Virus record (IMG/VR): IMGVR_UViG_3300034104_003795
Span: 26,370-90,369 of that record
Strand: one strand, 5' to 3'
Origin: a virus
Length of the DNA stretch: 64,000 nucleotides
Each line of letters starts with the position of its first letter. The stretch's first letter is position 1. Of this stretch, positions 28,977-63,850 are shown piece after piece. Below the pieces are notes generated by a model, which saw only the letters and a list, made by a program, of their open reading frames with translations, searched no databases and had not been told where the DNA came from. A program made the translations under genes and the position numbers.

Positions 28977-29570
28977 TTAAATTTTTACATTAAAGTTTAT
29001 AATACATCGAGTATCCTTTGAAGGTCCAGAGCTTGAATGGTATCTATTTCCATTGAATAACACTACTCTACCTTTTTTTGGACTTACTCTTTTTAGTATT
29101 TCAGGCTTTGCATCTTTTGAAATCGGTCCATCATTTTTTGTTCTATTGAATATAAACGTATCCCCATCGGTATCGTTTACATAATATAAACAAACAAGAT
29201 GTTCGTAACCAATATCAATATGCGGATTGTCATATTCCTTTCGTAATTCACTTGCCAATGGAAAATGCATAAAACTTCTTGCGTTATAAATTTCTTTACA
29301 TTCTTTTCCAATTTTTTTACAAGCTTCATTTGGTATAATTTTCACTTCATTTAATAATGAATCATTTACAAAACGCGGATTATCCTGTTTGATGTAACAT
29401 GCTATACCAGGTGTTAATTGTTTAATACCCAATCTTTTTATTTCAGATAAAGGTAAAGCGATATCTTTAAAAAATATCCATGACAATCTTGTAGAACTAA
29501 AAAGTTCTTCTAATTTGTCTTGGGTAGATTTTGGTAAAAAATCGTCAATCACAATTATATCGTCAATCAT
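28977..29570 (-). CDS. 2OG-Fe(II) oxygenase superfamily protein (prolyl-4-hydroxylase-like)
   Basis: HxD...H triad 'PHIDIG...YYVND' and 'GNRYHSSSG'; 'GRVVLFNG'. Confidence 0.65.
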   Translation of the reverse strand: MIDDIIVIDDFLPKSTQDKLEELFSSTRLSWIFFKDIALPLSEIKRLGIKQLTPGIACYIKQDNPRFVNDSLLNEVKIIPNEACKKIGKECKEIYNARSFMHFPLASELRKEYDNPHIDIGYEHLVCLYYVNDTDGDTFIFNRTKNDGPISKDAKPEILKRVSPKKGRVVLFNGNRYHSSSGPSKDTRCIINFNVKI

Positions 29571-31511: not shown

Positions 31512-32486
31512 TTATTGAATGCTTTTAAACAACTGCGGTACAGTACCATATACTGGCAATTTACCATCCCACTTTTGTACATATTCTAATTGAATAAGTA
31601 ATGGTGTCAATGTTTGTTGCTTCATTCTATTTGCTTCAGCTTCAGCTTTTGCCGATGTAAGTAATGCTTGTGCGTTACCTTCCGCAGTTGCTACTTTAAT
31701 CTTTGCTTCAGCTTCGGCAGTTTTTACTTTATTTTCAGCCATCAATGCCGCCTGAACTGCGTTATTCTTAGCCTCAATTGCCGTTTTGAATGTTTCAGGA
31801 TATACTAAATTTGATGTAAACTGATTAACAATAAATCCTTCTGCTAATAGTTGCCCTTCTAATATCTTACGAACCTCAACTTCATATGCTTGTCTATTAC
31901 CAATTAATTCATCAGCTGTATATTTGTTGGTTGCCAATCTGAATGCGTCAAATACGGATGTTTTCAAAAACCCTTCTTCTATTTGGTCCAAACTTCTACG
32001 ATATTTAGCGAAGATTGATGGAACTTTCTCTCTCTTTACTGAATAGTTAATGATTGGTGAAACGTGAAACTCACTACCATCTTTACTATTTACTACAAAT
32101 GAATTTTCACCTGTATATTCTTTGTGTTGAATGAATGTAGGGAACTCATAGATTGAATGTGTAATTGGATTATAGAATACCATACCAGTTACTTCAGTCA
32201 CATCACTTACACCTTTGTTATCACCATAAAGGTTTACTTTAACACCCACGTGTCCTGCATCAATTCTTTCGCAAGACTTAAATAAAAATACCATTAGAAA
32301 TAATCCAACGATACTACCACCGATAATCTTTGTCATCTTTTTAATTTTTAATTGTTGTTCTAATTTATATTGTTGTAATTGTTCTTCACGCTCTTTTTGT
32401 TGGCGAGCATACCTTTCTTCAAACGATTCGAATGCCATATTACTTTGTTTTTTTAGTGTACTTACGTTTTGGTTTACTTTGCTCAT
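31512..32486 (-). CDS. SPFH/band-7 (prohibitin/HflK-like) membrane protein
   Basis: N-terminal TM 'IIGGSIVGLFLMVFLF', SPFH core, C-terminal Ala/Glu-rich 'AEAEAKIKVATAEGNAQALLTSAKAEAEA' coiled coil. Confidence 0.65.
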   Translation of the reverse strand: MSKVNQNVSTLKKQSNMAFESFEERYARQQKEREEQLQQYKLEQQLKIKKMTKIIGGSIVGLFLMVFLFKSCERIDAGHVGVKVNLYGDNKGVSDVTEVTGMVFYNPITHSIYEFPTFIQHKEYTGENSFVVNSKDGSEFHVSPIINYSVKREKVPSIFAKYRRSLDQIEEGFLKTSVFDAFRLATNKYTADELIGNRQAYEVEVRKILEGQLLAEGFIVNQFTSNLVYPETFKTAIEAKNNAVQAALMAENKVKTAEAEAKIKVATAEGNAQALLTSAKAEAEANRMKQQTLTPLLIQLEYVQKWDGKLPVYGTVPQLFKSIQ

Positions 32487-33067: not shown

Positions 33068-33403
33068 TTAAGGTATTAAATGTCTTACTAATATTGTTAA
33101 TGAAATCACTATCCATATCGTATTGAATGCAATCAATGTAGGTAAATCCTTTCTCATTGATGCCCAAATTAACAAAGAGGATGTAATCAATGTTAAGAAA
33201 TGAAATTGCCAAATCTCAATGCCAAATATTAAACCTGGAATGATAATGATTGCTTTGGCAAACCATGCAAAGAATTCAATCACATTATAATCTGTCCAAT
33301 AATTTTTGTCCAAGAACATTTTATAACGTTTGAATATTTTTTTAATTCCAATTCCTAAATACAAAGCGAATAGGAATACAATATATGTGATTATGTATTT
33401 CAT
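33068..33403 (-). CDS. polytopic membrane protein (111 aa)
   Basis: 3-4 hydrophobic helices. Confidence 0.45.
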   Translation of the reverse strand: MKYIITYIVFLFALYLGIGIKKIFKRYKMFLDKNYWTDYNVIEFFAWFAKAIIIIPGLIFGIEIWQFHFLTLITSSLLIWASMRKDLPTLIAFNTIWIVISLTILVRHLIP

Positions 33404-33981
33404 TACTTTAAATCTTTTTTAACATCTTCTTTTACTTTTTCCAAATAAACTAATCTGTCATTGTGAGAAACAAATGGCACACTCCAAAATTGTCTTGTCT
33501 TTGTTTTGAACCAACCGAACACAAATGAATATACACCCATCACCAATCTTAATTTTACCGAATTCAAATAAAGTGTCATAACAGGTAAAGCAGGTGCACC
33601 ATGTGTTAAATAAGTTCTTACTTTTTTGTCACTTAACAAAGGAGTTGGATATCCATACACCTTTGTAACAGGCGTAAACTTATATGCAAATCCAGGTGTA
33701 AAGATTTGGTCAAAGAATGATTCCATAGCCGGCGAACATCTAAACCAATATACCGGTGATACGAAGTAAATCTTATCAGCCCAAGTAATTAATTGTTTGT
33801 ATTCACTAACTTTATCTTTATGGAATTCAAACGTTTTGTTTTCTGCATACAAATCAATTACAAATACTTCTTGCTTATTTTTCTCAAGAGTTTCTTTGAT
33901 TGTCTTTGCAATACCATTGGTGCAAAAACTTTCTTTGTTTGGATGCCCAATTACTATTAAATTTTTCATAACTTTATCCAT
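33403..33981 (-). CDS. flavodoxin-like NAD(P)H:quinone oxidoreductase / FMN reductase family protein
   Basis: 'MKNLIVIGHPNKESF' and 'IYFVSPVYWF' flavodoxin_2-like signatures. Confidence 0.6.
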   Translation of the reverse strand: MDKVMKNLIVIGHPNKESFCTNGIAKTIKETLEKNKQEVFVIDLYAENKTFEFHKDKVSEYKQLITWADKIYFVSPVYWFRCSPAMESFFDQIFTPGFAYKFTPVTKVYGYPTPLLSDKKVRTYLTHGAPALPVMTLYLNSVKLRLVMGVYSFVFGWFKTKTRQFWSVPFVSHNDRLVYLEKVKEDVKKDLK

Positions 33982-37138: not shown

Positions 37139-37164
37139 TAAGTCATTGATTATCAATCAGTTAT
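37139..37164. promoter_or_regulatory. TAAGTCATTGATTATCAATCAGTTAT palindromic motif
   Basis: member of recurrent TTGATNATCAA motif family; overlaps 3' end of 37153-38112 gene. Confidence 0.45.
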
Positions 37165-38112
37165 GATGGCATGTATTTTTTGATTCAGGTCTATAAATTT
37201 ATTAGTTATATCCTGACAAATACCATTGTTATAATTTTCGGAATTTTGAATAGGAATTATTTTTGATAAAAATCCAGAAGGTCTCAAATAATCAACTTTA
37301 TCACGTATTCTAAAATTTTCCTGATACATAGTTTGTCCGTTTACTTCTTTATTATAATCGGAAACTCTACCTTGATTATGCGTTCTTACAAAACACAAAA
37401 TCTTTTTTATTGAATTATGTCCCAATCCTAAATAATCTAAACTTCCCAAAAATTCAAGATCATCAACAAAAAAAGATGTTAGATTTATTTTATCTTTAAC
37501 TCTTTTTACCGAAGAAGTTCTCATTGAATATGAATGATAAATTGATAATTGATTTGCTTTTGCCGCATGAATTATTGAAGTATAATGTTGCGGGGTTTCA
37601 AAGTAATTATCTATAAATTGCCACGGATTTGTCCACGGACTATTGTTTGGAATAGTATAACCTGCCCACATAGCTCTTGTTTTTTCGTGCTCAAATGGAT
37701 TTTTGGTTTCAACTAATGATGTTAGTTTATTATCATTAAAAAATATAGATGAACCATATGTAAAATCTAATTCACTATTAGTAGTATAAACATCTACTAA
37801 AAATTTCAAAGAATCATTTAATAGAATATCATCATCATCTAATCTAATCATTATTTCTCCCAATGAAAGTTCTGGTGATAGAATCCAGCTATTTTGAAAT
37901 AAATCATAACTAGATTTAGTACTCATATACAAAACTCTCTTATCAGAATTTCTTTGCTTAAACCATTTATAAATTGAAAAATTAATATCAGATGCAGAAT
38001 CATCAAACATTAATACTTCCCAATCAGTATGTGATTGTAATTCAATTGACGCCAATGCCTCTTTTAAAAACTCTGGTCTATTGCATGTTCGTACTACTAC
38101 GGTTACTTTCAT
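37153..38112 (-). CDS. family-2 glycosyltransferase
   Basis: 'MKVTVVVRTCNRPEFLKEALASIELQSHTDWEVLMFDDSASD' GT2 N-terminal Rossmann signature with DDS (DxD-like). Confidence 0.6.
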   Translation of the reverse strand: MKVTVVVRTCNRPEFLKEALASIELQSHTDWEVLMFDDSASDINFSIYKWFKQRNSDKRVLYMSTKSSYDLFQNSWILSPELSLGEIMIRLDDDDILLNDSLKFLVDVYTTNSELDFTYGSSIFFNDNKLTSLVETKNPFEHEKTRAMWAGYTIPNNSPWTNPWQFIDNYFETPQHYTSIIHAAKANQLSIYHSYSMRTSSVKRVKDKINLTSFFVDDLEFLGSLDYLGLGHNSIKKILCFVRTHNQGRVSDYNKEVNGQTMYQENFRIRDKVDYLRPSGFLSKIIPIQNSENYNNGICQDITNKFIDLNQKIHAIITD

Positions 38113-52374: not shown

Positions 52375-52463
52375 TTGATTCTCAATCAAGAATTTTTGGG
52401 CAAAAAATAACCCATTGAAAATCAATGAGTTATGAATGTGTTGAAAATCAATGAGTTATGAAT
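52375..52463. promoter_or_regulatory. cluster of three palindromic motifs: ATTGATTCTCAATCAAGAATTTTT, CATTGAAAATCAATGAGTTATGAAT x2
   Basis: same motif family and same arrangement as 48308-48391. Confidence 0.5.
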
Positions 52464-52789
52464 TATCCATAATTTTCCCAATAATATTGCCTTACAGCTC
52501 CACCCAATTCCATATCATTAGGATATTGTTCAACTAGGTATTTAGGTATTGAAATAAGTTCTCTACCCGCTGAACTTCCTTTGGTATAACAAATACCACA
52601 AAGTTGTCCAACTCCTTCTACATATCCAGTTCTTATATCAATATGTGTGCTTGTTTTATATTGTGTTTTCTTTCCACAAATTACACAATTATCATATTGA
52701 ACGTCATCTTTAATTGTAGTAAATGCAGGATTAATTCCTGTTACTAAATTATCTTCTCCAATTTGTAATGTTACGTGATGTTCTCCCAT
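52463..52789 (-). CDS. hypothetical Cys-rich protein (108 aa)
   Basis: 'CVICGKK...CGICYTKGS'. Confidence 0.45.
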   Translation of the reverse strand: MGEHHVTLQIGEDNLVTGINPAFTTIKDDVQYDNCVICGKKTQYKTSTHIDIRTGYVEGVGQLCGICYTKGSSAGRELISIPKYLVEQYPNDMELGGAVRQYYWENYG

Positions 52790-52825: not shown

Positions 52826-53257
52826 CTATTTTGAATTTTCCAAATCTAAATTGGCAGTGTACCATTCTAATATTTCTTCACCTGCTATTATATCCCTAGT
52901 TGCAACTCCATCTGTTGTTATATTAATATTTTCTTCATTTGGATATGCCGAATTACAATACGATACCGAATGACAAATGAAATTTATCCCTTTAAACAAT
53001 CTAAATAATTTATAACCACAATCTTCGTTTATAAAATACATATCCAAAAGGTCTTGTACCCCTTCTGGTAAATTTTTTAATTTATCTTTGGGAAGCATAT
53101 ACACACCCGTTTCTCCATCCCATTGTGGAAATACTTGCTCTCCTTTTTTTATATCTTTAATTGCAAATACACCTATCCCGTGAATTGGTGATGGTGCAAT
53201 TTTGCTTTTCACATTCATTTCTAAATGGTCTATAACCTTTTGTATATTTGTATTCAT
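52826..53257 (-). CDS. SET-domain protein (putative lysine methyltransferase)
   Basis: 'HGIGVFAIKDIKKGEQVF', 'FICHSVSYCNSAYPNE' (NHSCxPN-like), C-terminal 'EILEWY' (ELxxDY-like). Confidence 0.5.
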   Translation of the reverse strand: MNTNIQKVIDHLEMNVKSKIAPSPIHGIGVFAIKDIKKGEQVFPQWDGETGVYMLPKDKLKNLPEGVQDLLDMYFINEDCGYKLFRLFKGINFICHSVSYCNSAYPNEENINITTDGVATRDIIAGEEILEWYTANLDLENSK

Positions 53258-54792
53258 TAACTATAAAATTTTCCTGACATTAAATTCTTTATAAATTGTT
53301 CCTGTGTTTGTAATAACTTAGCTCCTTCATCCGCACGTCTTATAATTTTAGTGTGTAGTTGTTTTGTATAATGTATAAGAGAATATTTTTTTAATGTATT
53401 AAATACTGCGGGTTTAGATAGAGTTTCCAATCCGTACAATGTCCAACACCAAACACCCCAACCAGATGAACCATTGTAACTGGAAAAATCAAATGTAGAA
53501 GGACTTCTATATTTACAAATTTCTATGATATTTTTTACAAAATCACTCATTGGTAATTCGTTATTACAAAACTTCCAAAATTCTGAATCATTTCGTTTAT
53601 TATAGTAATGGATTCGTATTAGGTCTTTATACTCATCTACCAGAGTTCCCATAACCTCATTGTATCGTTTTAAATTTTGTTCTAAAAAAAATTCTTTTTT
53701 ATTTAAAGAAAAGAAATTACTGAATAACGTATCAACTTGTAATAACGTTGTATGAATTGACGTAGCTTGAAGTGGTTCTAAAAATGAAGATGATAATCCT
53801 ATCGCTACAACATTTTTAATCCAAAATTTATCTAATCTACCTGGATCAAAACTTAATTTTCTTATCGGTTGTATTTTCCTACCAGTTGTTTTTTCCAATT
53901 CTTCAAGCGCCTTATCATCACTTACAAATTTATCGCAATATACATAACCACATCCATATCTTTCTTGCGTTGGTATTTGCCACATCCAACCATTCGGCAT
54001 TGACCAAGCCAAAGTTTCTAATTTAGCTTCTTCCGGTCCTTTTTCGTATTGATGTATATAAGGTAATGCGGAATTTACGGGAAGTTCATTTGAATAACTT
54101 ATCCATTTTGCACCCATTTTATTAATTAACTTCTTATGAAATCCAGTACAATCTATCCAAAAGTCTGCCTCTAACGGAATTAAGTTACCTTCCAATTTTA
54201 CGCTATCACATTCACCTGTTATTGGATTTATATTAACATCATCAACTTTAGCATCTATGTGTTTTACACCGTTTTCTATACAAACACTTTTAAAATATTC
54301 ACCAACTTTATGGGCATCAAAGTGATAACCATGTATACCCATATTTTCTTTACCGTTAATGTGATAATCCGATATTCCTCTGGACATAAAATGTCCCGCT
54401 ATGGATGAATCATAAAAATTACCCTGCATACAGGAAGCAAGAAATTCACTATCTACGTTATATCCCGCGGTTTCAGACGGTTGTATGGGACTTAAAAATT
54501 CAGTACCAACCCCATTCCAATCTTTAAAACGTATTCCGTATTTTGGCACTGCACGTGACCCTTTAAAAAAGTTAAATTCAGTTTTTTTCAAAGCAGAAAA
54601 ACGAGTAGCTACCATTTGTTGCATTAACGCAGTAGTTCCTTCTCCGGCCCCGATAATTGGTATATCGGAACTTTCAATTACAGTAATATCTATTTGCTCT
54701 AATCTATCCTGTTTGTATAATTGGTTTTGATTTGCAAAGAATGCCGCAGTCAACCAACCCGCTGTTCCCCCACCTACTATAACAATTTTCAT
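53257..54792 (-). CDS. flavin-dependent halogenase (tryptophan-halogenase family)
   Basis: N-terminal FAD fold 'MKIVIVGGGTAGWLTAAFFA'; 'IIGAGEGTT'; diagnostic 'GWMWQIP' (WxWxIP); 'SFLEPLQATSI' (= F(I/L)EPLxSTGI motif). Confidence 0.75.
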   Translation of the reverse strand: MKIVIVGGGTAGWLTAAFFANQNQLYKQDRLEQIDITVIESSDIPIIGAGEGTTALMQQMVATRFSALKKTEFNFFKGSRAVPKYGIRFKDWNGVGTEFLSPIQPSETAGYNVDSEFLASCMQGNFYDSSIAGHFMSRGISDYHINGKENMGIHGYHFDAHKVGEYFKSVCIENGVKHIDAKVDDVNINPITGECDSVKLEGNLIPLEADFWIDCTGFHKKLINKMGAKWISYSNELPVNSALPYIHQYEKGPEEAKLETLAWSMPNGWMWQIPTQERYGCGYVYCDKFVSDDKALEELEKTTGRKIQPIRKLSFDPGRLDKFWIKNVVAIGLSSSFLEPLQATSIHTTLLQVDTLFSNFFSLNKKEFFLEQNLKRYNEVMGTLVDEYKDLIRIHYYNKRNDSEFWKFCNNELPMSDFVKNIIEICKYRSPSTFDFSSYNGSSGWGVWCWTLYGLETLSKPAVFNTLKKYSLIHYTKQLHTKIIRRADEGAKLLQTQEQFIKNLMSGKFYS

Positions 54793-54797
54793 ATATT

Positions 54798-55007
54798 TTA
54801 TTTTTTAGTTTCTTCCATATTACCAACATATTGATATACATCCCATAATCTTCCTAATGCGTATTCCAATTGAAATTTAAGTTCACTATCAGTTTCCGTT
54901 AATGGATGTTCTACACAATGGTCATTTAGGGTACACATTATAACATGCAATCTGTCCATCAATTCTAAATAGTGTCCATCATTAATTTTTGTTTCATTTT
55001 CTGGCAT
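54798..55007 (-). CDS. hypothetical protein (69 aa)
   Basis: ORF only. Confidence 0.4.
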   Translation of the reverse strand: MPENETKINDGHYLELMDRLHVIMCTLNDHCVEHPLTETDSELKFQLEYALGRLWDVYQYVGNMEETKK

Positions 55008-55018
55008 ATATCATTTGT

Positions 55019-55735
55019 TTAAAATTCAGTTATACATCCTGTATTTTTGAAATTACTTCTATAATGAACCCGAATACCTCTGTCTTTTTGAGTTGCTATG
55101 TATGGTTTAAGTTCATTAATATCAAATATGTCAAACCATTTTTTCATATAACTATCCCAAGATATAGTGTTACATATATCAAACATTTTTTCAATTGAAT
55201 AGTTTTCTTTTTGTTGAACATATGCCATACCAAGACTTGATTCAGGTGTATTATTATTCCTTAAATTGTTAATTAGATTGTCTTTTGTTTTATTAAACAT
55301 GATTTTCATATTCTCAACAGTACCACATATTATATGGTCTCCTATGTGAAATGGATATGGACAATTCAATGGTCTAAAAAACATAGAACTACATAATAGT
55401 TTTTCATCTGACTTTAATGAATGGAACATCTTATCAATATCGGTCCAGTATTCATCACCTCTAACTTTAATAGCATATTTTGTTTCAGTTAAATTCAATC
55501 CATTTAAAGTTGATACCAATTGATATTCTAAGTTTTGCATATGTCCCTGTCCGGCGAATTCAAAATCAACTCCATCTGCTTTTACCACTTTCCAATTTGA
55601 TGGTATTTCAAATGGTATAGTATAATCATTCCAAGTTGATATGATAACTTTATGATTTGAATAATTTTCAATCCACATTTTCAATGGCTCATCTTCACAT
55701 CTTCCTTGTATTATAATTGTTAAATCATTTATCAT
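55019..55735 (-). CDS. hypothetical protein (238 aa), possibly glycosyltransferase-like
   Basis: in-operon ORF; no firm motif. Confidence 0.4.
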   Translation of the reverse strand: MINDLTIIIQGRCEDEPLKMWIENYSNHKVIISTWNDYTIPFEIPSNWKVVKADGVDFEFAGQGHMQNLEYQLVSTLNGLNLTETKYAIKVRGDEYWTDIDKMFHSLKSDEKLLCSSMFFRPLNCPYPFHIGDHIICGTVENMKIMFNKTKDNLINNLRNNNTPESSLGMAYVQQKENYSIEKMFDICNTISWDSYMKKWFDIFDINELKPYIATQKDRGIRVHYRSNFKNTGCITEF

Positions 55736-56926: not shown

Positions 56927-57739
56927 TTATTTTTTACCAAAGTGAGATACTATGTGTTTTACTATTAAACTCATTTTATCTGCACTTTCATTTGCTACTC
57001 TTTGCACTTCTTCGTGCGTTATTTCTACTATCTTACCTGCAACTCCTAAATCAGTAATCAAAGACATTGAGAATACTTTAACCCCCATATGTCTAGCAAC
57101 TAATACTTCAGGTATAGTTGACATCCCAACTGCATCTCCACCTATTATACTCATATATCTATACTCTGCTGGCGTTTCATAGTTTGGACCGGATACTGCT
57201 ATCAATACTCCTTCATGCGTTCTAATATCAACTTCACATTGTTTCGCTACTTCAATCATTTCCTTATCATATGCCGCACTAACATCTAAAAAACGAGGTC
57301 CCATTGAATCATCATTTGGACCTAACAATGGATTATCACCCATTAGATTAATATGGTCATTTACAAACATCACATCACCAATTTCAAAGTTAGGATTCAT
57401 ACCACCCGTTGCGTTGGATGTTATCAATCTTTCGATACCTAACATTTTCAGTATTCGTATTGGGTATGTAATTTCTTGCATTGTATATCCTTCGTAATAA
57501 TGATTTCTACCCTGAAGTGCTACTACCGGTACTCCATCAAGTGTACCAAATATTAAATTACCACTATGCCCTTCAATCGTTGGTGTGATAAAACCCGGAA
57601 TATCTTTATATGGTATTGTAGCTGTAATATCTATATCGTTAGCCACATCACCTAATCCTGAACCCAATACCAATCCTATCTTTGGTCTAGTATATGTAAA
57701 CTTATTAATGTAATTTAATGTTTCGTTATATTGTGCCAT
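56927..57739 (-). CDS. purine nucleoside phosphorylase (PunA-type, PNP/MTAP family)
   Basis: 'IGLVLGSGLG', 'HSGNLIFGTLDGVPVVALQGRNHYYEG', 'SNATGG'. Confidence 0.8.
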   Translation of the reverse strand: MAQYNETLNYINKFTYTRPKIGLVLGSGLGDVANDIDITATIPYKDIPGFITPTIEGHSGNLIFGTLDGVPVVALQGRNHYYEGYTMQEITYPIRILKMLGIERLITSNATGGMNPNFEIGDVMFVNDHINLMGDNPLLGPNDDSMGPRFLDVSAAYDKEMIEVAKQCEVDIRTHEGVLIAVSGPNYETPAEYRYMSIIGGDAVGMSTIPEVLVARHMGVKVFSMSLITDLGVAGKIVEITHEEVQRVANESADKMSLIVKHIVSHFGKK

Positions 57740-58157
57740 TTGTTATTCTTTTTTTAATTTCGGTTGTACTGATTCCTCTGGTGTATGATAGGTAAACTAA
57801 TACAATATCATTTTCATCCAGCCAATCCTGTGTGAATTGCATTTGTGTATAATAATCTTTCTTTGCCCAATCATCACCAATTGCTATGATATCAGGTTTA
57901 ACTTGTAATATTGATGGTTTACTATCTGCACCCCCGATGTTAGGAATAACCTCATCAACAAACTTACAAAACTCCAAAGACTTCTTTCGTTCTTCGTAAG
58001 TCATAATTGGTGGTTTACCTTTATAGTATTCAATAAACTCATCTGTGTTTAGTGATACTATTACTTTATCAGCTATTTTAGAACATTGTTTAAGAAAGTT
58101 CATGTGGCCATAATGTAATATGTCAAATGTTCCACCGGTGTATAATATTTTACTCAT
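57726..58157 (-). CDS. cytidylyltransferase-like nucleotidyltransferase (TagD/RfaE-domain-II type)
   Basis: 'LYTGGTFDILHYGHMNFL' (HxGH motif). Confidence 0.7.
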   Translation of the reverse strand: MSKILYTGGTFDILHYGHMNFLKQCSKIADKVIVSLNTDEFIEYYKGKPPIMTYEERKKSLEFCKFVDEVIPNIGGADSKPSILQVKPDIIAIGDDWAKKDYYTQMQFTQDWLDENDIVLVYLSYTRGISTTEIKKRITNGTI

Positions 58158-58845
58158 ATATTCGTTTAAAAGGTATATTTACTCTGTTTAATTCTGCTTC
58201 AATTTCTATTACATTATTTGTATGTAATCCATCCCCACAATAATCCGTATATTTTCTAGTAGGAAGTTCTAATATAATTGAATTTTCTATTTGTTTTGTT
58301 TTATCATATAATTCATGTCCTAATAATATTTCAATAGATTCATTTCTTTCGAGAATTGGAAATAGATGATTTAATTTTTTAGGATTTATTGCAAGTGTAC
58401 AAGCATTAACTTCATACGATGGTCTAGTTGCATATGCAATTGGAGGCCACGGTGGTGCGGGCCAATCTCCACATGCTAAATCAAATGTATTATCTAAAAG
58501 AAATCTAATTGTTTCACCGCTTGTAAAAAATGAATCTTCATCTAATATTAGAACTTTATCATATTCTCTAGTTAGAGCCTGTATTTTATTTATACCTTCA
58601 GTAAAGTAAAATCCATTTAATGTAGAACCTGCTGCAGATGTATTTCCAAAATTCCATTTCTTCTTATCAAAATAAATTGATACTCCTAATTCTAAAAACT
58701 TTGGTATGTATTGAATGTATTCGCTTATATCATTATCATATAAAAAAAGACATCTTATATCAATATTAGGAAAAAGATGTCTCACCGATTGAACCGATAA
58801 ATAAGTTCTATCAGTTCGTTTATAATCTTTAAAAAATACTATCAT
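58150..58845 (-). CDS. hypothetical protein, possibly glycosyltransferase-like
   Basis: ORF-track start 58869 is a TTG inside tRNA-Leu; internal ATG (MIVFFKDYK) used; 'VLILDEDSFF' DxD-like. Confidence 0.4.
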   Translation of the reverse strand: MIVFFKDYKRTDRTYLSVQSVRHLFPNIDIRCLFLYDNDISEYIQYIPKFLELGVSIYFDKKKWNFGNTSAAGSTLNGFYFTEGINKIQALTREYDKVLILDEDSFFTSGETIRFLLDNTFDLACGDWPAPPWPPIAYATRPSYEVNACTLAINPKKLNHLFPILERNESIEILLGHELYDKTKQIENSIILELPTRKYTDYCGDGLHTNNVIEIEAELNRVNIPFKRIYE

Positions 58846-58861
58846 ATTATTAAGTTGTTTG

Positions 58862-58942
58862 TGCCCCAAGAGAGATTCGAACTCTCACACCTCTCGATAT
58901 CAGTTCCTAAAACTGATGTGTCTACCGTTCCACCATCAGGGC
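58862..58942 (-). tRNA. tRNA-Leu (anticodon TAG)
   Basis: type-II cloverleaf; acceptor GCCCTGA/TTGGGGC, anticodon loop TTTAGGA, 13-nt variable arm, T-arm GAGAG-TTCGAAT-CTCTC. Confidence 0.8.
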
Positions 58943-59470
58943 ATATTTTTGTAATGATTTTAAAAATAATTCAATTCCTTTGTTGTGATTAGCTTCCCAA
59001 TCATCCGGATTACCGCTATCACTTACATATTTGTATGCAGTAAAATCAAATCCATAAATCTTACATACCTTTGCAATTGAGTATGCTTCCATATCACATA
59101 TTACAGATGGTGTGGTTTGAAAATGGTCTTGTGTATAACATATATTATATCCCAATCCATTGAAATCAATATTACCCATCAATATTTCATTATCAAATGG
59201 TGTTTTTGTTTTATCTGCAAATGGTCTAGCGTCCATATCGTTTTGGACAAATGTTTTACACTTAAATAAACTACCAACCATAACGGCATGCCCACCCGCA
59301 CTTCCGTAGTTTATAACTACTACATCTTTGGGGTCTAAATCTTTAAGAGTTTCAGTTGCTTTTATAGCCGCATTTACTTTTCCAACACCAGTATAAACAA
59401 CTTTAACACCTTCCGGTGCTTTTTCCTTTGGAAACTCATTTTCTAATGCAACAAATAATATAACGTTCAT
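58922..59470 (-). CDS. mtnN: 5'-methylthioadenosine/S-adenosylhomocysteine nucleosidase
   Basis: 'MNVILFVALENEF', 'VVYTGVGKVNAAIKATETL', 'VINYGSAGG', 'DMEAYSIAKVC'; start set at internal ATG 59470; 3' end overlaps tRNA-Leu by ~21 nt. Confidence 0.7.
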   Translation of the reverse strand: MNVILFVALENEFPKEKAPEGVKVVYTGVGKVNAAIKATETLKDLDPKDVVVINYGSAGGHAVMVGSLFKCKTFVQNDMDARPFADKTKTPFDNEILMGNIDFNGLGYNICYTQDHFQTTPSVICDMEAYSIAKVCKIYGFDFTAYKYVSDSGNPDDWEANHNKGIELFLKSLQKYALMVER

Positions 59471-59477
59471 AACAATA

Positions 59478-59565
59478 AGTATGCTGTTAGAGTAGGATTC
59501 GAACCATACAGGAGGAGATTCAAAAAGTAACATTTAGTGCTTGCAAGCTGGTGGTCAACCCCATA
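59478..59565 (-). other. tRNA-like fragment with degenerate T-arm (possible pseudo-tRNA)
   Basis: contains GGTTCGAATCC T-loop but T-stem pairs only 2 bp and no acceptor pairing found. Confidence 0.25.
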
Positions 59566-59661
59566 TTACTTTTCTATTTCTTTATCCTCGCCCACGAGAC
59601 GAGTGGGTGTGTTTGCCAGGTTATAACATAGATAACCAATTTCACCATCTAACAATTTTTG

Positions 59662-59746
59662 CGGAGAAACAGGGATTCGAACCCCAGAACCTGTTACAGT
59701 TGCCGGTTTTCAAGACCGGTGCATTCAACCACTCTGCCATTTCTCC
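59662..59746 (-). tRNA. tRNA-Ser (anticodon TGA)
   Basis: acceptor GGAGAAA/TTTCTCC, anticodon stem-loop CCGGT-CTTGAAA-ACCGG, long variable arm. Confidence 0.85.
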
Positions 59747-59763
59747 GTTAAGTACTCTAATAA

Positions 59764-60027
59764 TTAGAATACTTTTTCTTCGCTTTTACCGTCTAAACTA
59801 TTTTCGGTATCGGCATGCTTTCTTCTAGCTTCTTCTGCTTCTTTATATATTCTAACCCAAGTTAAGAATATATCTACTGGCGCTAATATCCAACACATAA
59901 TCAATAGAGCCATAGAATCTAATCCAGGTGAAATACCTAATCCACCAGCCATTACATCTCTATTCCATTTTCGTATTGACATTATAACACAATAGATGAA
60001 ACACATTACATAATAAGTAATAAACAT
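59764..60027 (-). CDS. small membrane protein (87 aa) within tRNA island
   Basis: ORF with 2-3 hydrophobic helices; uncertain. Confidence 0.3.
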   Translation of the reverse strand: MFITYYVMCFIYCVIMSIRKWNRDVMAGGLGISPGLDSMALLIMCWILAPVDIFLTWVRIYKEAEEARRKHADTENSLDGKSEEKVF

Positions 60028-60046
60028 AACATTTGTTTTTAATGAG

Positions 60047-60118
60047 TTACCCGAACTGGACTCGAACCAATACGAACAGAATCAAAATCTGTGATGCTAA
60101 CCATTACATCATCGGGCA
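60047..60118 (-). tRNA. tRNA-Gln (anticodon TTG)
   Basis: U1-A72 acceptor TGCCCGA/TCGGGTA, anticodon stem-loop ACAGA-TTTTGAT-TCTGT. Confidence 0.8.
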
Positions 60119-60254
60119 ATAATCTCAAGCATTCTACTTCCCGCAGTGCGAAATTGTATCTTACTTAGCCCATCGCTAGCGGTATGGGTACTTGAGTTTT
60201 AGTAATTGAAAAACATCTATTCTTCTTGCGGCCTAATACTAACAGGCCCACTTG

Positions 60255-60327
60255 AGCGAGAGACCAGGCTCGAACTGGCCACCTGAAGCTTGGAAGGCTA
60301 CCGCTCTACCAAATGAGCTACTCTCGC
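60255..60327 (-). tRNA. tRNA-Gly (anticodon TCC)
   Basis: acceptor GCGAGAG/CTCTCGC, D-arm GCTC-ATTTGGTA-GAGC, anticodon loop CTTCCAA. Confidence 0.85.
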
Positions 60328-60385
60328 TAAAGAGTGTAGTGGAAGATATCATTCCTGCAGTTACTACACGTTTTATCTGCTTTGG

Positions 60386-60458
60386 AGCGGAAGACCAGGC
60401 TCGAACTGGCCACCCTGACCTTGGCAAGGTCATGCTCTACCAAATGAGCTACTTCCGC
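60386..60458 (-). tRNA. tRNA-Gly (anticodon GCC)
   Basis: acceptor GCGGAAG/CTTCCGC, anticodon stem-loop TGACC-TTGCCAA-GGTCA. Confidence 0.85.
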
Positions 60459-60515
60459 AATTAATAGGTGAGGCTATTACCATCATTAAGTCTTTAATGC
60501 TTTAGACACCTATTG

Positions 60516-60589
60516 TGGACCCACTTGGAATCGAACCAAGCACCTAATGATTATGAGTCATTTGCTCTAACCGAATGAGCTATAGGTCC
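60516..60589 (-). tRNA. tRNA-Met (anticodon CAT; elongator/initiator/Ile2 not distinguishable)
   Basis: acceptor GGACCTA/TGGGTCC, anticodon stem-loop AATGA-CTCATAA-TCATT. Confidence 0.8.
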
Positions 60590-60593
60590 GATG

Positions 60594-60667
60594 TGGAGAA
60601 GAAGGGATTCGAACCCATGACCCCCTGCGTGCAAGGCAGGTGCTCTAGCCAACTGAGCTACTTCCCC
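60594..60667 (-). tRNA. tRNA-Ala (anticodon TGC)
   Basis: acceptor GGGGAAG/CTTCTCC with G3:U70 identity pair, anticodon stem-loop CCTGC-CTTGCAC-GCAGG. Confidence 0.85.
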
Positions 60668-60678
60668 ATAAGTGAACG

Positions 60679-60763
60679 TACCGGGGATGGGATTCGAACC
60701 CACACGAGCGATTTCTGCTCAAAAGATTTTAAGTCTTTCATGTCTACCATTCCATCACCCCGG
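60679..60763 (-). tRNA. tRNA-Leu (anticodon TAA)
   Basis: acceptor GCCGGGG/CCCCGGT, anticodon loop CTTAAAA, long variable arm GAGC-AGAAATC-GCTC. Confidence 0.85.
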
Positions 60764-60789
60764 CGGCGATACTATTTTTAATAACTATA

Positions 60790-60831
60790 CAAAGATACGA
60801 ATAATAATTTAATTATCCAAATCCTTTTTTA
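60790..60831 (-). promoter_or_regulatory. Bacteroidetes-type promoter candidate driving minus-strand tRNA cluster
   Basis: +strand 'CAAAGATAcgaataataatttaattatCCAAAT'. Confidence 0.4.
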
Positions 60832-61258
60832 TATTATATATTTTAACCCTTCTGATTTTAGTTCCACTCTCATCAGGATTAATTAATATATCAATTTTTT
60901 TTCTCCACCTCTTTGCCATCAAATCTCTGACAGTATAAACACCATCTAATTTTCCAGCACCCTTCACTCTTACTTTTTGTCCAAACTTATACTTTCGTTT
61001 CAGGTCTCTACTAATCGCTATTACCTTTTGTTTCTTTGGATTAAGACTATCCAACTTATAACCACTTGCGGTAATTAAGGGAGTTGAATCGGTTTGGCCG
61101 GCGGATACCGTATATGTTGTAACCGTAACTACATCATAAGGTATGTGTTTCTTTTCTATCATTATATCCGCAACTTCTTCCTCACTCATTTCGGAGTCAA
61201 TCATATTATGTGGAATAAACATAATAACAGTTAAGAATAAAAGAATAACTTTTCTCAT
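60809..61258 (-). CDS. 3D-domain (MltA/YuiC-like) putative peptidoglycan hydrolase, secreted
   Basis: signal peptide MRKVILLFLTVIMFIP; 'VTVTTYTVSAGQTDSTPLITASGYKL' and 'GVYTVRDLMAKRWRKKIDIL' match 3D-domain pattern. Confidence 0.6.
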   Translation of the reverse strand: MRKVILLFLTVIMFIPHNMIDSEMSEEEVADIMIEKKHIPYDVVTVTTYTVSAGQTDSTPLITASGYKLDSLNPKKQKVIAISRDLKRKYKFGQKVRVKGAGKLDGVYTVRDLMAKRWRKKIDILINPDESGTKIRRVKIYNIKKDLDN

Positions 61259-61276
61259 AACTTATTTTTTATTTAG

Positions 61277-61350
61277 TGATTCGGAAAGGATTCGAACCTT
61301 TGACCCCAAACTTAGAAGGTTTGTGCTCTATCCAGCTGAGCTACCGAACC
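61277..61350 (-). tRNA. tRNA-Arg (anticodon TCT)
   Basis: acceptor GGTTCGG/CCGAATC, anticodon stem-loop CAAAC-CTTCTAA-GTTTG. Confidence 0.85.
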
Positions 61351-61456
61351 ATATAGTAAGAGAGATACTACGTCTAATATCTCAATGTTTCTACCGGCCG
61401 TCTATGGAATATGCGCACTGACCATAAACTAAACTTTCGTCTGCTCTTACTACTTG

Positions 61457-61527
61457 CGGAAAGTACGGGAATCGAACCCGTCACATTGCCGTGACAAGGC
61501 AACATTATACCGATTAACTAACTCTCC
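61457..61527 (-). tRNA. tRNA-Asp (anticodon GTC)
   Basis: acceptor GGAGAGT/ACTTTCC, anticodon stem-loop TTGCC-TTGTCAC-GGCAA, 4-nt variable loop. Confidence 0.8.
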
Positions 61528-61556
61528 AAATTACATTATCGTTCTTTAACTAATTT

Positions 61557-61814
61557 TTATTTTTTATTGTTAGTTAATTTTTGTTCTAATTTATCCAATC
61601 TCGAATCTAATTGAGAAAAGATGTGATTTTCTAATTCATCTGCTCTACGATTAAAGTCAGTTTGATTTCTATCAACTTGACGATACAAATCTTCGCCGAT
61701 GCTTTCTAATTCTTTTTCTATTTTTCTTGCCTTAACAAGCCCAATAACAGCAACTATCGACACTGCGATAACCACCACTACAGACATTCCTAAAACGAAT
61801 GATAATATTTCCAT
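61557..61814 (-). CDS. small membrane-anchored coiled-coil protein (85 aa)
   Basis: N-terminal TM 'FVLGMSVVVVIAVSIVAVIGLV' + charged helical region. Confidence 0.4.
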   Translation of the reverse strand: MEILSFVLGMSVVVVIAVSIVAVIGLVKARKIEKELESIGEDLYRQVDRNQTDFNRRADELENHIFSQLDSRLDKLEQKLTNNKK

Positions 61815-61851
61815 AATTTATTTCTCCTATATGTCAAAGAACGATAATGTG

Positions 61852-61924
61852 AGCCCAAGACAAGAATCGAACTTGCGACCTACTGATTACAAATCAGTTG
61901 CTCTACCTGCTGAGCTACTCGGGC
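61852..61924 (-). tRNA. tRNA-Thr (anticodon TGT)
   Basis: acceptor GCCCGAG/CTTGGGC, anticodon stem-loop ACTGA-TTTGTAA-TCAGT. Confidence 0.85.
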
Positions 61925-62024
61925 GTTTAGGAAAGTAGAAGATGGGTGCGTGGACATCTACTTTTATGATTGGCATTTCTAACCGATTTATGCATACTAA
62001 TATGCTTATCCCAATCAACCTTTG

Positions 62025-62096
62025 TACTCTGTACGGGATTCGAACCCGTATTACATCCGTGAAAGGGATGTGACCTAACCCTTAGTCGAACAGAGC
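62025..62096 (-). tRNA. tRNA-Glu (anticodon TTC)
   Basis: acceptor GCTCTGT/ACAGAGT, 3-bp D-stem with 10-nt loop, anticodon stem-loop CATCC-CTTTCAC-GGATG. Confidence 0.8.
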
Positions 62097-62114
62097 GTTA
62101 ATGTTAATGTTATA

Positions 62115-62146
62115 CAAATATACGAATAATATCTGATATAACCAAA
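62115..62146 (-). promoter_or_regulatory. Bacteroidetes-type promoter candidate driving minus-strand tRNA cluster
   Basis: +strand 'CAAATATAcgaataatatctgatataaCCAAAT'. Confidence 0.4.
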
Positions 62147-62309
62147 TCTATTTTAACAATAGGTTTTATATTTTTTTATACCACCTTTCAAACGTCTTAT
62201 ACATATCATACAAGCTCCGTTTTCTCTTATTATTTTTCTTATTCGGTATAACTTATTACTTCGTCTATTAATTTCAAACTTATCATTTTTCATAATGTCC
62301 AATTTAATG

Positions 62310-62398
62310 CGGAGAATGTTGGATTCGAACCAACGGTACAACTTTCATCGTACAACGGTTTAGCAAACCGGCCCCATCGTCCACTCGGGCAATTCTCC
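62310..62398 (-). tRNA. tRNA-Ser (anticodon GCT)
   Basis: acceptor GGAGAAT/ATTCTCC, anticodon loop TTGCTAA, long variable arm, T-arm GTTGG-TTCGAAT-CCAAC. Confidence 0.8.
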
Positions 62399-62400
62399 GT

Positions 62401-62475
62401 TGGGGTGTAAGGACGGTATCGAACCGTCTTATCTAGCTCCACAAACTAGCGCATCACCTTAATGCTTCAAACACC
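62401..62475 (-). tRNA. tRNA-His (anticodon GTG) with G-1 and genomically encoded CCA
   Basis: extra 5' G pairing with C73; anticodon stem-loop CTAGT-TTGTGGA-GCTAG; 3' ...CTTACAC-C-CCA. Confidence 0.8.
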
Positions 62476-62481
62476 ATTTGG

Positions 62482-62550
62482 TTGCGGGGCCAGGAATCGA
62501 ACCTGAATATCTGGCTTATGAGACCAAACGGATTACCTAATCTCCCCACA
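62482..62550 (-). tRNA. second CAT-anticodon tRNA (Met/fMet/Ile2) with shortened D-arm
   Basis: acceptor TGTGGGG/CCCCGCA, anticodon loop CTCATAA, T-arm TCAGG-TTCGATT-CCTGG; D-arm only ~13 nt. Confidence 0.55.
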
Positions 62551-62558
62551 ATATCAAG

Positions 62559-62629
62559 AGGCGAGTACAAGATTCGAACTTGTGTAAAAGCTTTTGCAGA
62601 GCTCCATATAACCACTCTAACAACTCGCC
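62559..62629 (-). tRNA. tRNA-Cys (anticodon GCA)
   Basis: acceptor GGCGAGT/ACTCGCC, anticodon stem-loop GAGCT-CTGCAAA-AGCTT, T-arm ACAAG-TTCGAAT-CTTGT. Confidence 0.75.
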
Positions 62630-62635
62630 ATTTTG

Positions 62636-62708
62636 TAGCCCCTAAAGGATTCGAACCCATACTCCGAAGTCCGTAGCTTCGTGTGCTAATCCATTACACC
62701 AAAGAGCC
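62636..62708 (-). tRNA. tRNA-Arg (anticodon ACG)
   Basis: acceptor GGCTCTT/AGGGGCT (three G:U pairs), anticodon stem-loop CGAAG-CTACGGA-CTTCG. Confidence 0.7.
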
Positions 62709-62712
62709 ATAG

Positions 62713-62783
62713 CACCGGTGGAAGGACTCGAACCCTCACAAACAGTTTTGGAGACTGGTATGCTACCATTACACTACACCGAT
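62713..62783 (-). tRNA. tRNA-Trp (anticodon CCA)
   Basis: A1-U72 acceptor ATCGGTG/CACCGGT (as in E. coli tRNA-Trp), anticodon loop CTCCAAA. Confidence 0.8.
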
Positions 62784-62789
62784 ATATTG

Positions 62790-62863
62790 TTGGAATAAAA
62801 AGAATCGAACTTTTAACCTTCCGCGTATCAGACGGATGCTCTAACCAATTGAGCTATATTCCA
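62790..62863 (-). tRNA. tRNA-Ile (anticodon GAT)
   Basis: acceptor TGGAATA/TATTCCA, D-arm GCTC-AATTGGTTA-GAGC, anticodon loop CTGATAC. Confidence 0.8.
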
Positions 62864-62911
62864 ATTTTGCACTTCCTATTTCCCAATGCTGTGTAGTGCG
62901 AACCATATCGG

Positions 62912-62985
62912 TTGGGAATGCAGGATTCGAACCTACGGCCTCTAGCTCCCAAAGCTAGCGCGATACCTGACTACGCTAATTCCCA
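62912..62985 (-). tRNA. tRNA-Pro (anticodon TGG)
   Basis: acceptor TGGGAAT/ATTCCCA, anticodon stem-loop CTAGC-TTTGGGA-GCTAG. Confidence 0.8.
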
Positions 62986-63060
62986 ATGTGATAAGTTTCC
63001 ATCCTATCGTATAATGTGTACATCATTATTTTAACTCAATATTAAGTTCGGAACTTTTTG

Positions 63061-63134
63061 TGACCCCTAATGGATTCGAACCATTGACTCCTATATTAAA
63101 AGTATAGTGCTCTAACCAACTGAGCTAAGAGGTC
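63061..63134 (-). tRNA. tRNA-Lys (anticodon TTT)
   Basis: acceptor GACCTCT/AGGGGTC, anticodon stem-loop CTATA-CTTTTAA-TATAG. Confidence 0.85.
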
Positions 63135-63174
63135 TGACTTTTGTCATACTTGTCACTTTCCATAGTATTTGTTT

Positions 63175-63384
63175 TTAATTGTTATCTTCTAATTCTATTT
63201 TACAATATTCGTCCAATGATATTTTATCAAATGTTATCCATTGTCCATTTCCAAAATCTACTGCGAACTTACCATCTTCTGGTAGATACGCAGTTACTAT
63301 TCCTTTACTACCCATTTCAATTTTTCCTTTTGGTGTCACCAACTCTTTTATTAATGTACCAACTCCATGATTAAAATCTGCCAT
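63175..63384 (-). CDS. hypothetical protein (69 aa) inside tRNA island
   Basis: ORF not overlapping tRNAs. Confidence 0.4.
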   Translation of the reverse strand: MADFNHGVGTLIKELVTPKGKIEMGSKGIVTAYLPEDGKFAVDFGNGQWITFDKISLDEYCKIELEDNN

Positions 63385-63406
63385 AATTGTTTTTTTAATT
63401 GTTAAG

Positions 63407-63479
63407 TGGTAATGAGTGGTATCGAACCACTTCCTAAAGATTTTCAGTCTTTCGCTTCTACCTAGTTAGCTTCATCACC
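63407..63479 (-). tRNA. tRNA-Phe (anticodon GAA)
   Basis: acceptor GGTGATG/CATTACC, anticodon stem-loop AAAGA-CTGAAAA-TCTTT. Confidence 0.8.
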
Positions 63480-63483
63480 GGTG

Positions 63484-63565
63484 TTGGGGTAGACGGACTC
63501 GAACCGCCGAACTCAAATGAGAGCTGATTTACAGTCAGCCGCAATTGCCACTATGCGATACCCCA
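63484..63565 (-). tRNA. tRNA-Tyr (anticodon GTA)
   Basis: acceptor TGGGGTA/TACCCCA, anticodon stem-loop GCTGA-CTGTAAA-TCAGC, 14-nt variable arm. Confidence 0.8.
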
Positions 63566-63670
63566 ATGGCGTTCCATATAACTCACATTTGATAGCCCTA
63601 TCGTGCTACTCACTCAATCCTACAACAGCTTTCAACTGAGAGATTGTAGGAATGTGTATGGAACATGTTG

Positions 63671-63745
63671 TGGAAGTTACAGGATTCGAACCTATGACCC
63701 TCACGGTGTAAACGTGATGCTCTAAACCAACTGAGCTAAACTTCC
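63671..63745 (-). tRNA. tRNA-Val (anticodon TAC)
   Basis: acceptor GGAAGTT/AACTTCC, anticodon stem-loop TCACG-TTTACAC-CGTGA. Confidence 0.85.
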
Positions 63746-63778
63746 TACTTATCCAATATGTCAAAGAACTTAATCTTG

Positions 63779-63850
63779 CGCTCCCTCTTGGATTCGAACC
63801 AAGGACCAACAGATTAACAGTCTGCTGCGCTACCGCTGCGCCAAAGGAGC
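63779..63850 (-). tRNA. tRNA-Asn (anticodon GTT)
   Basis: acceptor GCTCCTT/AGGGAGC, anticodon stem-loop GCAGA-CTGTTAA-TCTGT. Confidence 0.85.

Follow-up and report, generated by a model that had tools for sequence, protein, structure and literature searches.

In a 64,000-nucleotide stretch of viral DNA (the window; positions 26,370 to 90,369 of IMG/VR record IMGVR_UViG_3300034104_003795), the 511-amino acid (aa) open reading frame (ORF) at 53257-54792 on the minus strand encodes a homologue of the flavin-dependent halogenases which carries a glutamine where PrnA and RebH have their catalytic glutamate. We conclude that this protein, hereafter the query, is probably a two-component enzyme of the Trp_halogenase family, belonging to a large and mainly viral clade which we name after its active-site signature the [E/Q]ATSIH clade, and resident in a T4-related jumbo phage of ~255-274 kb. 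The locus is a further member of the phage-encoded flavin-dependent halogenases, which have been known since 2005; what is unusual here is the natural and recurrent Gln at the catalytic Glu position, together with a fixed gene module in which the halogenase is flanked by a 69-aa ORF (p69) on one side and by a SET-domain protein and a 108-aa ORF (p108) on the other.

Family membership and fold

The halogenase gene and the sequence motifs discussed below are located as follows:
53257..54792, minus strand: flavin-dependent halogenase homologue, 511 aa (ORF with ATG start, supported by Pfam, PHROG, fold and dN/dS)
54754..54774, minus strand: GxGxxG dinucleotide-binding motif for flavin adenine dinucleotide (FAD), GGGTAGW, residues 7-13, kept in 116-117 of 117 aligned homologues
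54541..54543, minus strand: catalytic lysine K84 (equivalent to K79 of PrnA and RebH, K75 of PyrH and K83 of BrvH), by alignment to PyrH K75; invariant in 119/119 homologues
54478..54492, minus strand: SPIQP, residues 101-105, where tryptophan halogenases have the indole-binding Trp2 motif HPFE(R/Q), by alignment to PyrH and family comparison
53971..53991, minus strand: WxWxIP motif, GWMWQIP, residues 268-274, with W269, W271 and P274 invariant in 121/121 sequences
53755..53784, minus strand: divergent tunnel/halide motif FLEPLQATSI, residues 337-346, with Q342, A343 and S345 replacing Glu, Ser and Gly

The Pfam profile PF04820 (Trp_halogenase) matched residues 2-430 of the query over profile positions 1-420 of 458 (E=7.4e-89, 299 bits with a cut-off of 21), and phrog_2928 (annotated "tryptophan halogenase" in PHROGs) matched residues 1-440 over positions 1-419 of 475 (E=3.1e-98, 331 bits). 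Thirty solved halogenase chains match the query by sequence (E=1e-51 to 2e-35), with BrvH ranking best, followed by PyrH, Tar14, RebH, PrnA, Thal and VirX1, and the identity to all characterised enzymes is similarly low at 24-27%. An AlphaFold2 model made with 40 homologues as input (predicted local distance difference test score 93.2, predicted template modelling score 0.91) contains the two-module fold of a flavin monooxygenase-like box and a helical substrate pyramid, and the top 50 Foldseek matches in the PDB, including PyrH, Xcc4156, Thal, AbeH, RebH, 2PYX and BrvH, are all flavin-dependent halogenases aligned over the full length (~520 aligned columns, template modelling scores 0.83-0.87). 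Since every one of these 50 is a halogenase, the query does not group with the non-halogenating flavin monooxygenases, the outcome that the sequence-only reading had named as speaking against its assignment. That reading had proposed a flavin-dependent halogenase of the tryptophan-halogenase family with three motifs, to be checked with the Trp_halogenase profile; the ORF and all three motifs are where it placed them, far beyond chance, and with the profile, the fold, the FAD motif, WxWxIP and the catalytic Lys in agreement, the family assignment is right at the superfamily level.

The gene is under purifying selection, with a ratio of nonsynonymous to synonymous substitution rates (dN/dS) of 0.13 when compared with a relative at 94% identity and of 0.145 with a relative at 75% identity. 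Its GC content and GC content at third codon positions are those of the rest of the window, and the protein already carries the label "tryptophan halogenase" from the Joint Genome Institute (JGI).

A natural glutamine at the position of the catalytic glutamate

Of the catalytic Lys/Glu pair, for which a comparison with PrnA and RebH had been proposed, the Lys is kept as K84, whereas the Glu is replaced by Q342. As the K79A substitution abolishes the activity of PrnA (PMC5727139), the retention of the Lys is the key feature. The third motif, previously given as F(I/L)EPLxSTGI, is therefore only partly as described: the segment is present, but it is divergent in that the x, corresponding to E346 of PrnA, is Gln, the Ser is Ala and the Gly is Ser. 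An ungapped alignment places Q342 (codon CAA, 53767-53769) on E346 of PrnA, E354 of PyrH and E349 of BrvH (the latter Glu according to PMC5945002), and the counterpart in RebH is E357. All 29 solved structures compared have E-S-T at this segment and none has Q-A.

The query shares the signature F-x-E-P-L-[E/Q]-A-T-S-I-H with its 120 best homologues and with the viral loci, and within this clade E339, A343, T344, I346 and H347 are invariant (E339 in all 121 aligned sequences, being the query and these 120 homologues). Position 342 is occupied by Q in 70 and by E in 51 of the 121 sequences and by nothing else, while among 150 representatives of clusters at 50% identity there were about 37 with Q and 101 with E. 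In a neighbour-joining tree rooted on VirX1 as outgroup, E is the ancestral state and there have been at least six switches between E and Q. The exact sequence FLEPLQATSIH is found in the halogenase genes of the cyanophages S-PM2 and Sf-CH3 (36-37% identity to the query), the E form is found in HTVC008M, P-SSM2 and S-H38, and paralogues of the Q type and the E type lie side by side in a single phage (locus L066).

Several observations weigh against our reading of the query as a working enzyme of this family. Two motifs defined for the mining of halogenases (PMC8407142) are both missed: in Fx.Px.Sx.G (F-x-x-P-x-x-S-x-G) F337 and P340 are present with A343 in place of the Ser and S345 in place of the Gly, and in FX[DE]PX[EFL] the sequence FLEPLQ fits at the first five positions and ends in Q. 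The E346Q mutant of PrnA is about 100-fold slower (PMC5727139), and Q342 could therefore mean low or altered activity. No members of the [E/Q]ATSIH clade were found among the solved structures or, as characterised enzymes, in the papers searched, and a canonical flavin reductase (HpaC/RebF, Flavin_Reduct type) was not seen among the listed Pfam matches of the 70 larger ORFs in the window (25 of the 33 matched families). There is also no biosynthetic gene cluster around the halogenase gene, for which reason no substrate can be named, and the scan of bacterial genomes described below relied on short peptide patterns, with which distant bacterial members of the clade could be missed.

Some of this evidence would also suit a halogenase-derived protein with changed chemistry, which might halogenate very slowly, serve as a flavin oxidase or monooxygenase, or bind or scaffold together with the co-transcribed SET and p69 proteins: Q342 sits at the residue whose exchange slows PrnA, A343 and S345 break the Fx.Px.Sx.G motif, Q-A is seen in none of the structures compared, and the gene is fixed beside a SET methyltransferase and not within a biosynthetic cluster. 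We nevertheless judge such a change of function to be unlikely. K84, E339, WxWxIP and the FAD motif never vary and purifying selection acts on them, WxWxIP is believed to prevent monooxygenation (PMC8407142), and many active halogenases lack this Glu altogether, as with the phenol-clade halogenases, where CHEESY1 has F310 at this place (PMC12645471). In addition, E and Q have been exchanged repeatedly between otherwise near-identical active-site segments, a pattern more in keeping with an isosteric exchange that the enzyme tolerates than with lost function.

We return to the query as a probable halogenase, which can be compared with the E346Q mutant of PrnA, where Gln likewise replaces Glu at the position aligned with Q342. 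The mutant is engineered and its rate loss was seen with tryptophan (PMC5727139), whereas the Gln of the query is natural and is conserved throughout a subclade on which purifying selection acts, and it lies in a substrate pocket different from that of PrnA. As only E and Q are found at position 342 and have switched several times, the residue there would probably place hypohalous acid (HOX) and the Lys by hydrogen bonding, with Gln as an isosteric state that is tolerated, rather than serve as an obligatory base. The invariant E339 may then supply the acid, as an analogue of D307, the residue at motif position 3 of CHEESY1, which has been proposed to co-stabilise HOX (PMC12645471).

Substrate-binding motifs and the group C enzymes

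The tryptophan-binding motifs that have been described (PMC8269204) include Trp1 (ATFS..) and Trp2 (HPFE(R/Q)), and the substrate lid has Trp3 (Q..Q) and Trp4 (YYHG....YS). At the Trp1 position the query reads GTTALM, at Trp2 it reads SPIQP, its Trp3 region appears to differ and could not be aligned, and its C-terminal SYNGSSGWGVW (Y-H-G in paralogues) has only a partial likeness, at sequence level, to Trp4. The NCBIfam equivalog models gave sub-threshold scores only, namely 20.8 bits for QhpG (cut-off 240) and 17.3 bits for CmlS (cut-off 900).

These results bear on whether the query could be a genuine tryptophan halogenase of the PrnA/RebH type, chlorinating free L-tryptophan, as the sequence-only reading had labelled it. 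The Pfam family name and the "tryptophan halogenase" labels given by JGI and GenBank to the query and its phage homologues point that way, as do the superposition of the fold on PyrH, Thal and RebH and the partial Y-[H/N]-G element at the place of Trp4. Against this stand the lack of conservation of the Trp1 and Trp2 motifs and the apparently different Trp3 region, the absence of the catalytic Glu, the lack of a match to any NCBIfam tryptophan-halogenase equivalog, and the low identity to every characterised enzyme, with the nearest solved one by sequence, BrvH, rejecting tryptophan. We consider it very improbable that the query is such an enzyme, in the first place because the indole-binding HPF reads SPI, and the PrnA/RebH label is not supported. 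With the HPF indole sandwich reading SPI and no tryptophan-halogenase equivalog matched, free L-tryptophan is an unlikely substrate, and the query most likely acts on another one.

In its sequence traits the query resembles the enzymes of "group C", such as BrvH of Brevundimonas sp. BAL3 (PDB 6FRL), its best solved match by sequence (E=1e-51). The members of this group (BrvH, Xcc4156 and 2PYX) are labelled tryptophan halogenases yet do not accept tryptophan, they have an open substrate site and a native substrate which is not known, and like the query they end the motif with Ser where Gly is usual (FLEPLESTSI) (PMC5945002, PMC8269204). Unlike the query, BrvH keeps E349, the Ser and HPF; it is bacterial and has ~27% identity to the query.

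Distribution of the clade and known phage halogenases

At a threshold of E<=1e-3 the Trp_halogenase family comprised 4,295 clusters at 50% identity, 1,119 of them with E<=1e-30, and the mostly viral clade accounts for at least about 110 clusters at this identity. Relatives in IMG/VR were found at 39 loci (43-94% identity), whereas the best bacterial relatives in species-representative genomes have an identity of only 27-34% in the pattern-based, non-exhaustive scan. One bacterial EATSI protein was found, from Pseudoxanthomonas. Because of the changes from Ser to Ala and from Gly to Ser, the clade is missed by the standard three-motif mining rule. The viral halogenase loci span several phage types: the jumbo lineage of the window; phages with PolA, gp32, RecA and DnaB, in which the halogenase gene lies in the replication module; and a T4-like phage, in which two halogenase copies, one fused to DUF6445, are flanked by a tail-fibre gene on one side and the sheath and tube genes on the other. 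In L027 (6001-9562) and L049 a 681-aa halogenase-DUF6445 fusion is followed by a second copy. Tandem paralogues are also seen elsewhere, with three in L007 (7015-11533, on a 255.8-kb contig) and two in L066 (2976-5992), and a Pirellulales metagenome-assembled genome (L019, JAYGDO010000348.1, 1-13467) has seven Trp_halogenase-family paralogues on both strands within 13 kb.

Contrary to the sequence-only reading, a phage-borne copy is not highly unusual. With tblastn we found homologues in 70 GenBank phage records, most of them annotated "tryptophan halogenase", which include the cyanomyoviruses S-PM2, S-RIM44, Syn1, P-SSM2 and Syn9/Syn10, the Pelagibacter phage HTVC008M, an actinobacterial phage and Campylobacter phages, and to these are added the PHROGs family phrog_2928, the IMG/VR relatives and a literature going back to 2005. 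The prnA gene of P-SSM2 was discussed in that year (PMC1079782), this P-SSM2 gene is T4 gene cluster 212 in a 2010 cyanophage comparison (PMC3037559), VirX1 of cyanophage Syn10 was characterised in 2019 as an iodinating halogenase, with biochemistry and a crystal structure (PMC8407142), and a 2023 review counts a halogenase gene in 20/153 cyanophage genomes (PMC10452541).

The closest annotated relatives of the query are the cyanomyovirus "PrnA" genes of the S-PM2 (S-PM2d167), Sf-CH3, S-RIM44 and Syn1 type, with 35-37% identity over 91% of the query. Genes of the S-PM2 type share FLEPLQATSIH with the query, including the Gln, as well as SPI for HPF, and in S-PM2 and Sf-CH3 the halogenase lies beside tRNA genes and after a small overlapping ORF. 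They differ from the query in that they have no SET neighbour, the small ORF before them shows no relation to p69, and they belong to marine cyanophages of ~190 kb and not to this jumbo-phage lineage.

To our knowledge VirX1 is the only characterised viral flavin-dependent halogenase. We identified it by its published motifs as Syn10 CPUG_00131 (locus L014; PDB 6QGM). Like the query it is encoded by a virus outside a biosynthetic cluster, has the same fold, GxGxxG, WxWxIP and catalytic Lys, and is not specific for tryptophan. The two proteins share about 29% identity (E=3e-43), and VirX1 has FIEPLESTGL, with the Glu and Ser kept, and YPFGP, compared with FLEPLQATSI and SPIQP in the query; it also comes from a different phage group and has a different gene neighbourhood. 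With this low identity and a different active-site segment, the query does not belong with the VirX1-type viral iodinases. For VirX1 activity has been demonstrated in the order I > Br > Cl (PMC8407142), and for the query halogenation is predicted.

The surrounding DNA is that of a phage

The window contains 25 clustered tRNA genes (58861-63850, minus strand) for 19 amino acids, some of which have two genes, and this array starts ~4 kb upstream of the halogenase. Long runs of small ORFs on the same strand are present, and PHROG matches include a helicase, a T4-type ATP ligase, endonuclease V (denV), GroES and thymidylate kinase, with the ligase having its best match in a 595-kb uncultured phage and its next ones in T4-like phages of alphaproteobacteria. 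The identical halogenase protein occurs on 30 contigs, the longest of 273,997 bp, and a relative at 51% identity lies on the 255,830-bp contig ERZ28594649 scaffold_3. Nucleotide searches with 8 kb and 25 kb of the window gave no match in the GenBank phages, and hence this phage has no close cultured relative.

The alternative that the gene is not phage-borne, and belongs instead to bacterial DNA or a chimeric assembly with a bacterial secondary-metabolite locus, could draw on the lack of a recognised virion structural gene in the window and on its cellular-looking proteins (TonB-dependent-receptor-like, purine nucleoside phosphorylase and cyclophilin). It is hardly credible given the tRNA array, the same-strand small ORFs and the phage-type genes just described, and given that many independent contigs from different samples, from metagenomes and from IMG/VR, have their genes in the same order, with up to 94% identity in IMG/VR. 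In addition, relatives elsewhere adjoin tail sheath and tube genes or gp32 and RecA, one relative has a Kyanoviridae Gp96 domain, and relatives above 34% identity were not found in the species-representative bacterial genomes with the pattern-based scan. The DNA surrounding the halogenase is thus that of a phage.

A conserved gene block with a SET-domain protein

The genes around the halogenase and the one reductase candidate are located as follows:
54798..55007, minus strand: p69, 69-aa His/Cys-rich ORF, ending 5 nt before the halogenase start
52826..53257, minus strand: SET-domain protein, 143 aa (Pfam SET, E=7e-9), its start overlapping the halogenase stop (TAATG)
52463..52789, minus strand: p108, conserved 108-aa ORF and last gene of the block, with homologues at 50-99% identity after SET in L001-L011, L024 and L025
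52407..52433, minus strand: terminator-like hairpin with a 12-bp stem and T run just after p108, from a consensus scan only
55019..55735, minus strand: WavE-like protein (lipopolysaccharide synthesis family; Pfam PF07507, E=1e-9), part of a variable upstream cassette
33403..33981, minus strand: Flavodoxin_2/FMN_red NAD(P)H oxidoreductase, 192 aa (PF02525, E=1e-24; PF03358, E=8e-12)

The block has the order p69, one to three halogenase copies, SET and p108, and it holds in all relatives of the lineage examined, down to 50% halogenase identity, as well as in three cases that were looked up starting from the SET protein and not from the halogenase. The SET gene, which is translationally coupled to the halogenase through the TAATG overlap and encodes a lysine-methyltransferase fold, lies directly downstream of the halogenase or halogenases in every lineage relative examined (L007-L011, L024, L025 and L063-L066). 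Homologues of p69 lie directly 5' of the first halogenase copy in L007, L009, L024, L025, L064 and L066; they are 64-84 aa in length and have invariant His and Cys residues (INDGHYLELMDRLHV..CT..DH..HPL). In the Pfam and PADLOC scans neither p69 nor p108 had a match, and the PADLOC defence models did not match the halogenase or the seven neighbouring proteins.

The SET protein has 575 metagenomic homologues. We considered SET as a general partner of phage halogenases and rejected this, since it has no homologue in GenBank phages, since it is absent from the cyanophage and pelagiphage halogenase loci, and since in the second phage type (L044-like, with PolA, gp32 and RecA) it lies 5.3 kb downstream of the halogenase and not adjacent to it. 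In most phage lineages (L012-L055) the halogenase start is directly preceded or overlapped by a small ORF of 65-103 aa, and these small ORFs fall into at least four families without mutual homology, one of which is Ser-rich, ~100 aa in length and found in the PolA-type phages. That they form one conserved family was rejected following a comparison of the p69, L028, S-PM2 and L026/L027 types with blastp and hhalign, where the best pair reached only 4% probability.

The strong hairpin after p108 is possibly the end of the transcription unit. It was the sole feature of note in a promoter and terminator scan of this AT-rich region, where shuffled sequence had more promoter-like sites and about as many terminator-like ones.

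The genes upstream of the block vary between phages. Here they are the WavE-like gene and a 241-aa ORF, while relatives have methyltransferases, a sulfotransferase, and PglD/DegT-like, AdoMet decarboxylase and Asp/Arg-hydroxylase-like genes. Farther upstream, the window encodes an RNaseH-like protein, a purine nucleoside phosphorylase, a cytidylyltransferase and a methylthioadenosine/S-adenosylhomocysteine (MTA/SAH)-nucleosidase-like protein; the last three span 56927-59533 on the minus strand, with the phosphorylase matching NF006054 above its cut-off (348 bits) and the cytidylyltransferase resembling glycerol-3-phosphate cytidylyltransferase. Together with SET and with the methyltransferases and AdoMet decarboxylase of the relatives, the nucleoside and S-adenosylmethionine (SAM) genes hint at a SAM-centred accessory island.

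Proposed mechanism and significance

Extrapolating from the family, we propose that the query would work as a two-component halogenase. Reduced FAD would come from a host reductase, or possibly from the phage's own Flavodoxin_2/FMN_red protein, and would react with O2 at the flavin site formed by GxGxxG and WxWxIP; halide would attack the resulting flavin hydroperoxide to give hypohalous acid, which would move through the tunnel lined by the FLEPLQATS segment to K84, and the Lys would then direct the electrophilic halogenation of an electron-rich aromatic substrate. The Flavodoxin_2/FMN_red ORF at 33403-33981 is the sole reductase candidate among the listed matches and lies 19 kb from the halogenase; in NCBIfam it matches models for KefF, NAD(P)H oxidoreductase and azoreductase, none of them at or above the cut-off. 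It could possibly supply reduced flavin to the halogenase, but nothing links the two proteins.

A bolder and much more tentative proposal, which we think has a small chance of being right, is that the [E/Q]ATSIH enzymes are a virus-adapted branch in which the catalytic Glu is dispensable, and that in this lineage the fixed module of p69, one or more halogenases, SET and p108 acts on a macromolecular or envelope-related target of infection and not on a secondary metabolite. Such a target might be Trp or Tyr in a protein or peptide, or a precursor from the upstream sugar- and methyl-transfer cassette. If this were true, it would assign the first natural role to any viral halogenase and would provide a natural test of whether the Glu is a base or a mere positioner of HOX.

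For our preferred view of the query as a member of a mainly viral halogenase clade, the significance is more modest: it does not overturn current understanding, and it is of value for the discovery of enzymes and as a guide to studies of how phages use halogenases. Such genes are widespread in phages, yet the natural substrate or role in infection is known for none, with VirX1 having been studied only as a biocatalyst. A large and mostly viral clade beyond the reach of standard three-motif mining is a lead for enzyme discovery, the recurrent natural alternation of Glu and Gln bears on the debated role of this residue in PrnA and RebH as base or as positioner of HOX, and the SET methyltransferase and the two small proteins, with which the pairing is strict, are candidates for partners or substrates.

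Other genes in the window

The window also encodes several proteins of cellular type. A 1086-aa ORF at 2380-5640 on the plus strand, opposite to most genes, has the architecture of a TonB-dependent receptor, with CarboxypepD_reg, Plug and outer-membrane beta-barrel domains (PF25183, E=2e-40), which is unusual cargo within phage DNA; its SusC-like layout is a possible hint of a Bacteroidota-type host. Further ORFs of this kind within positions 1-52000 (including 31512-32486, 37153-38112 and 28977-29570) encode a cyclophilin-type peptidyl-prolyl isomerase, GroES, Band_7/SPFH, a family-2 glycosyltransferase, a 2-oxoglutarate-Fe(II) oxygenase and a phosphoribosyltransferase, as well as SnoaL-like and cREC_REC domains.

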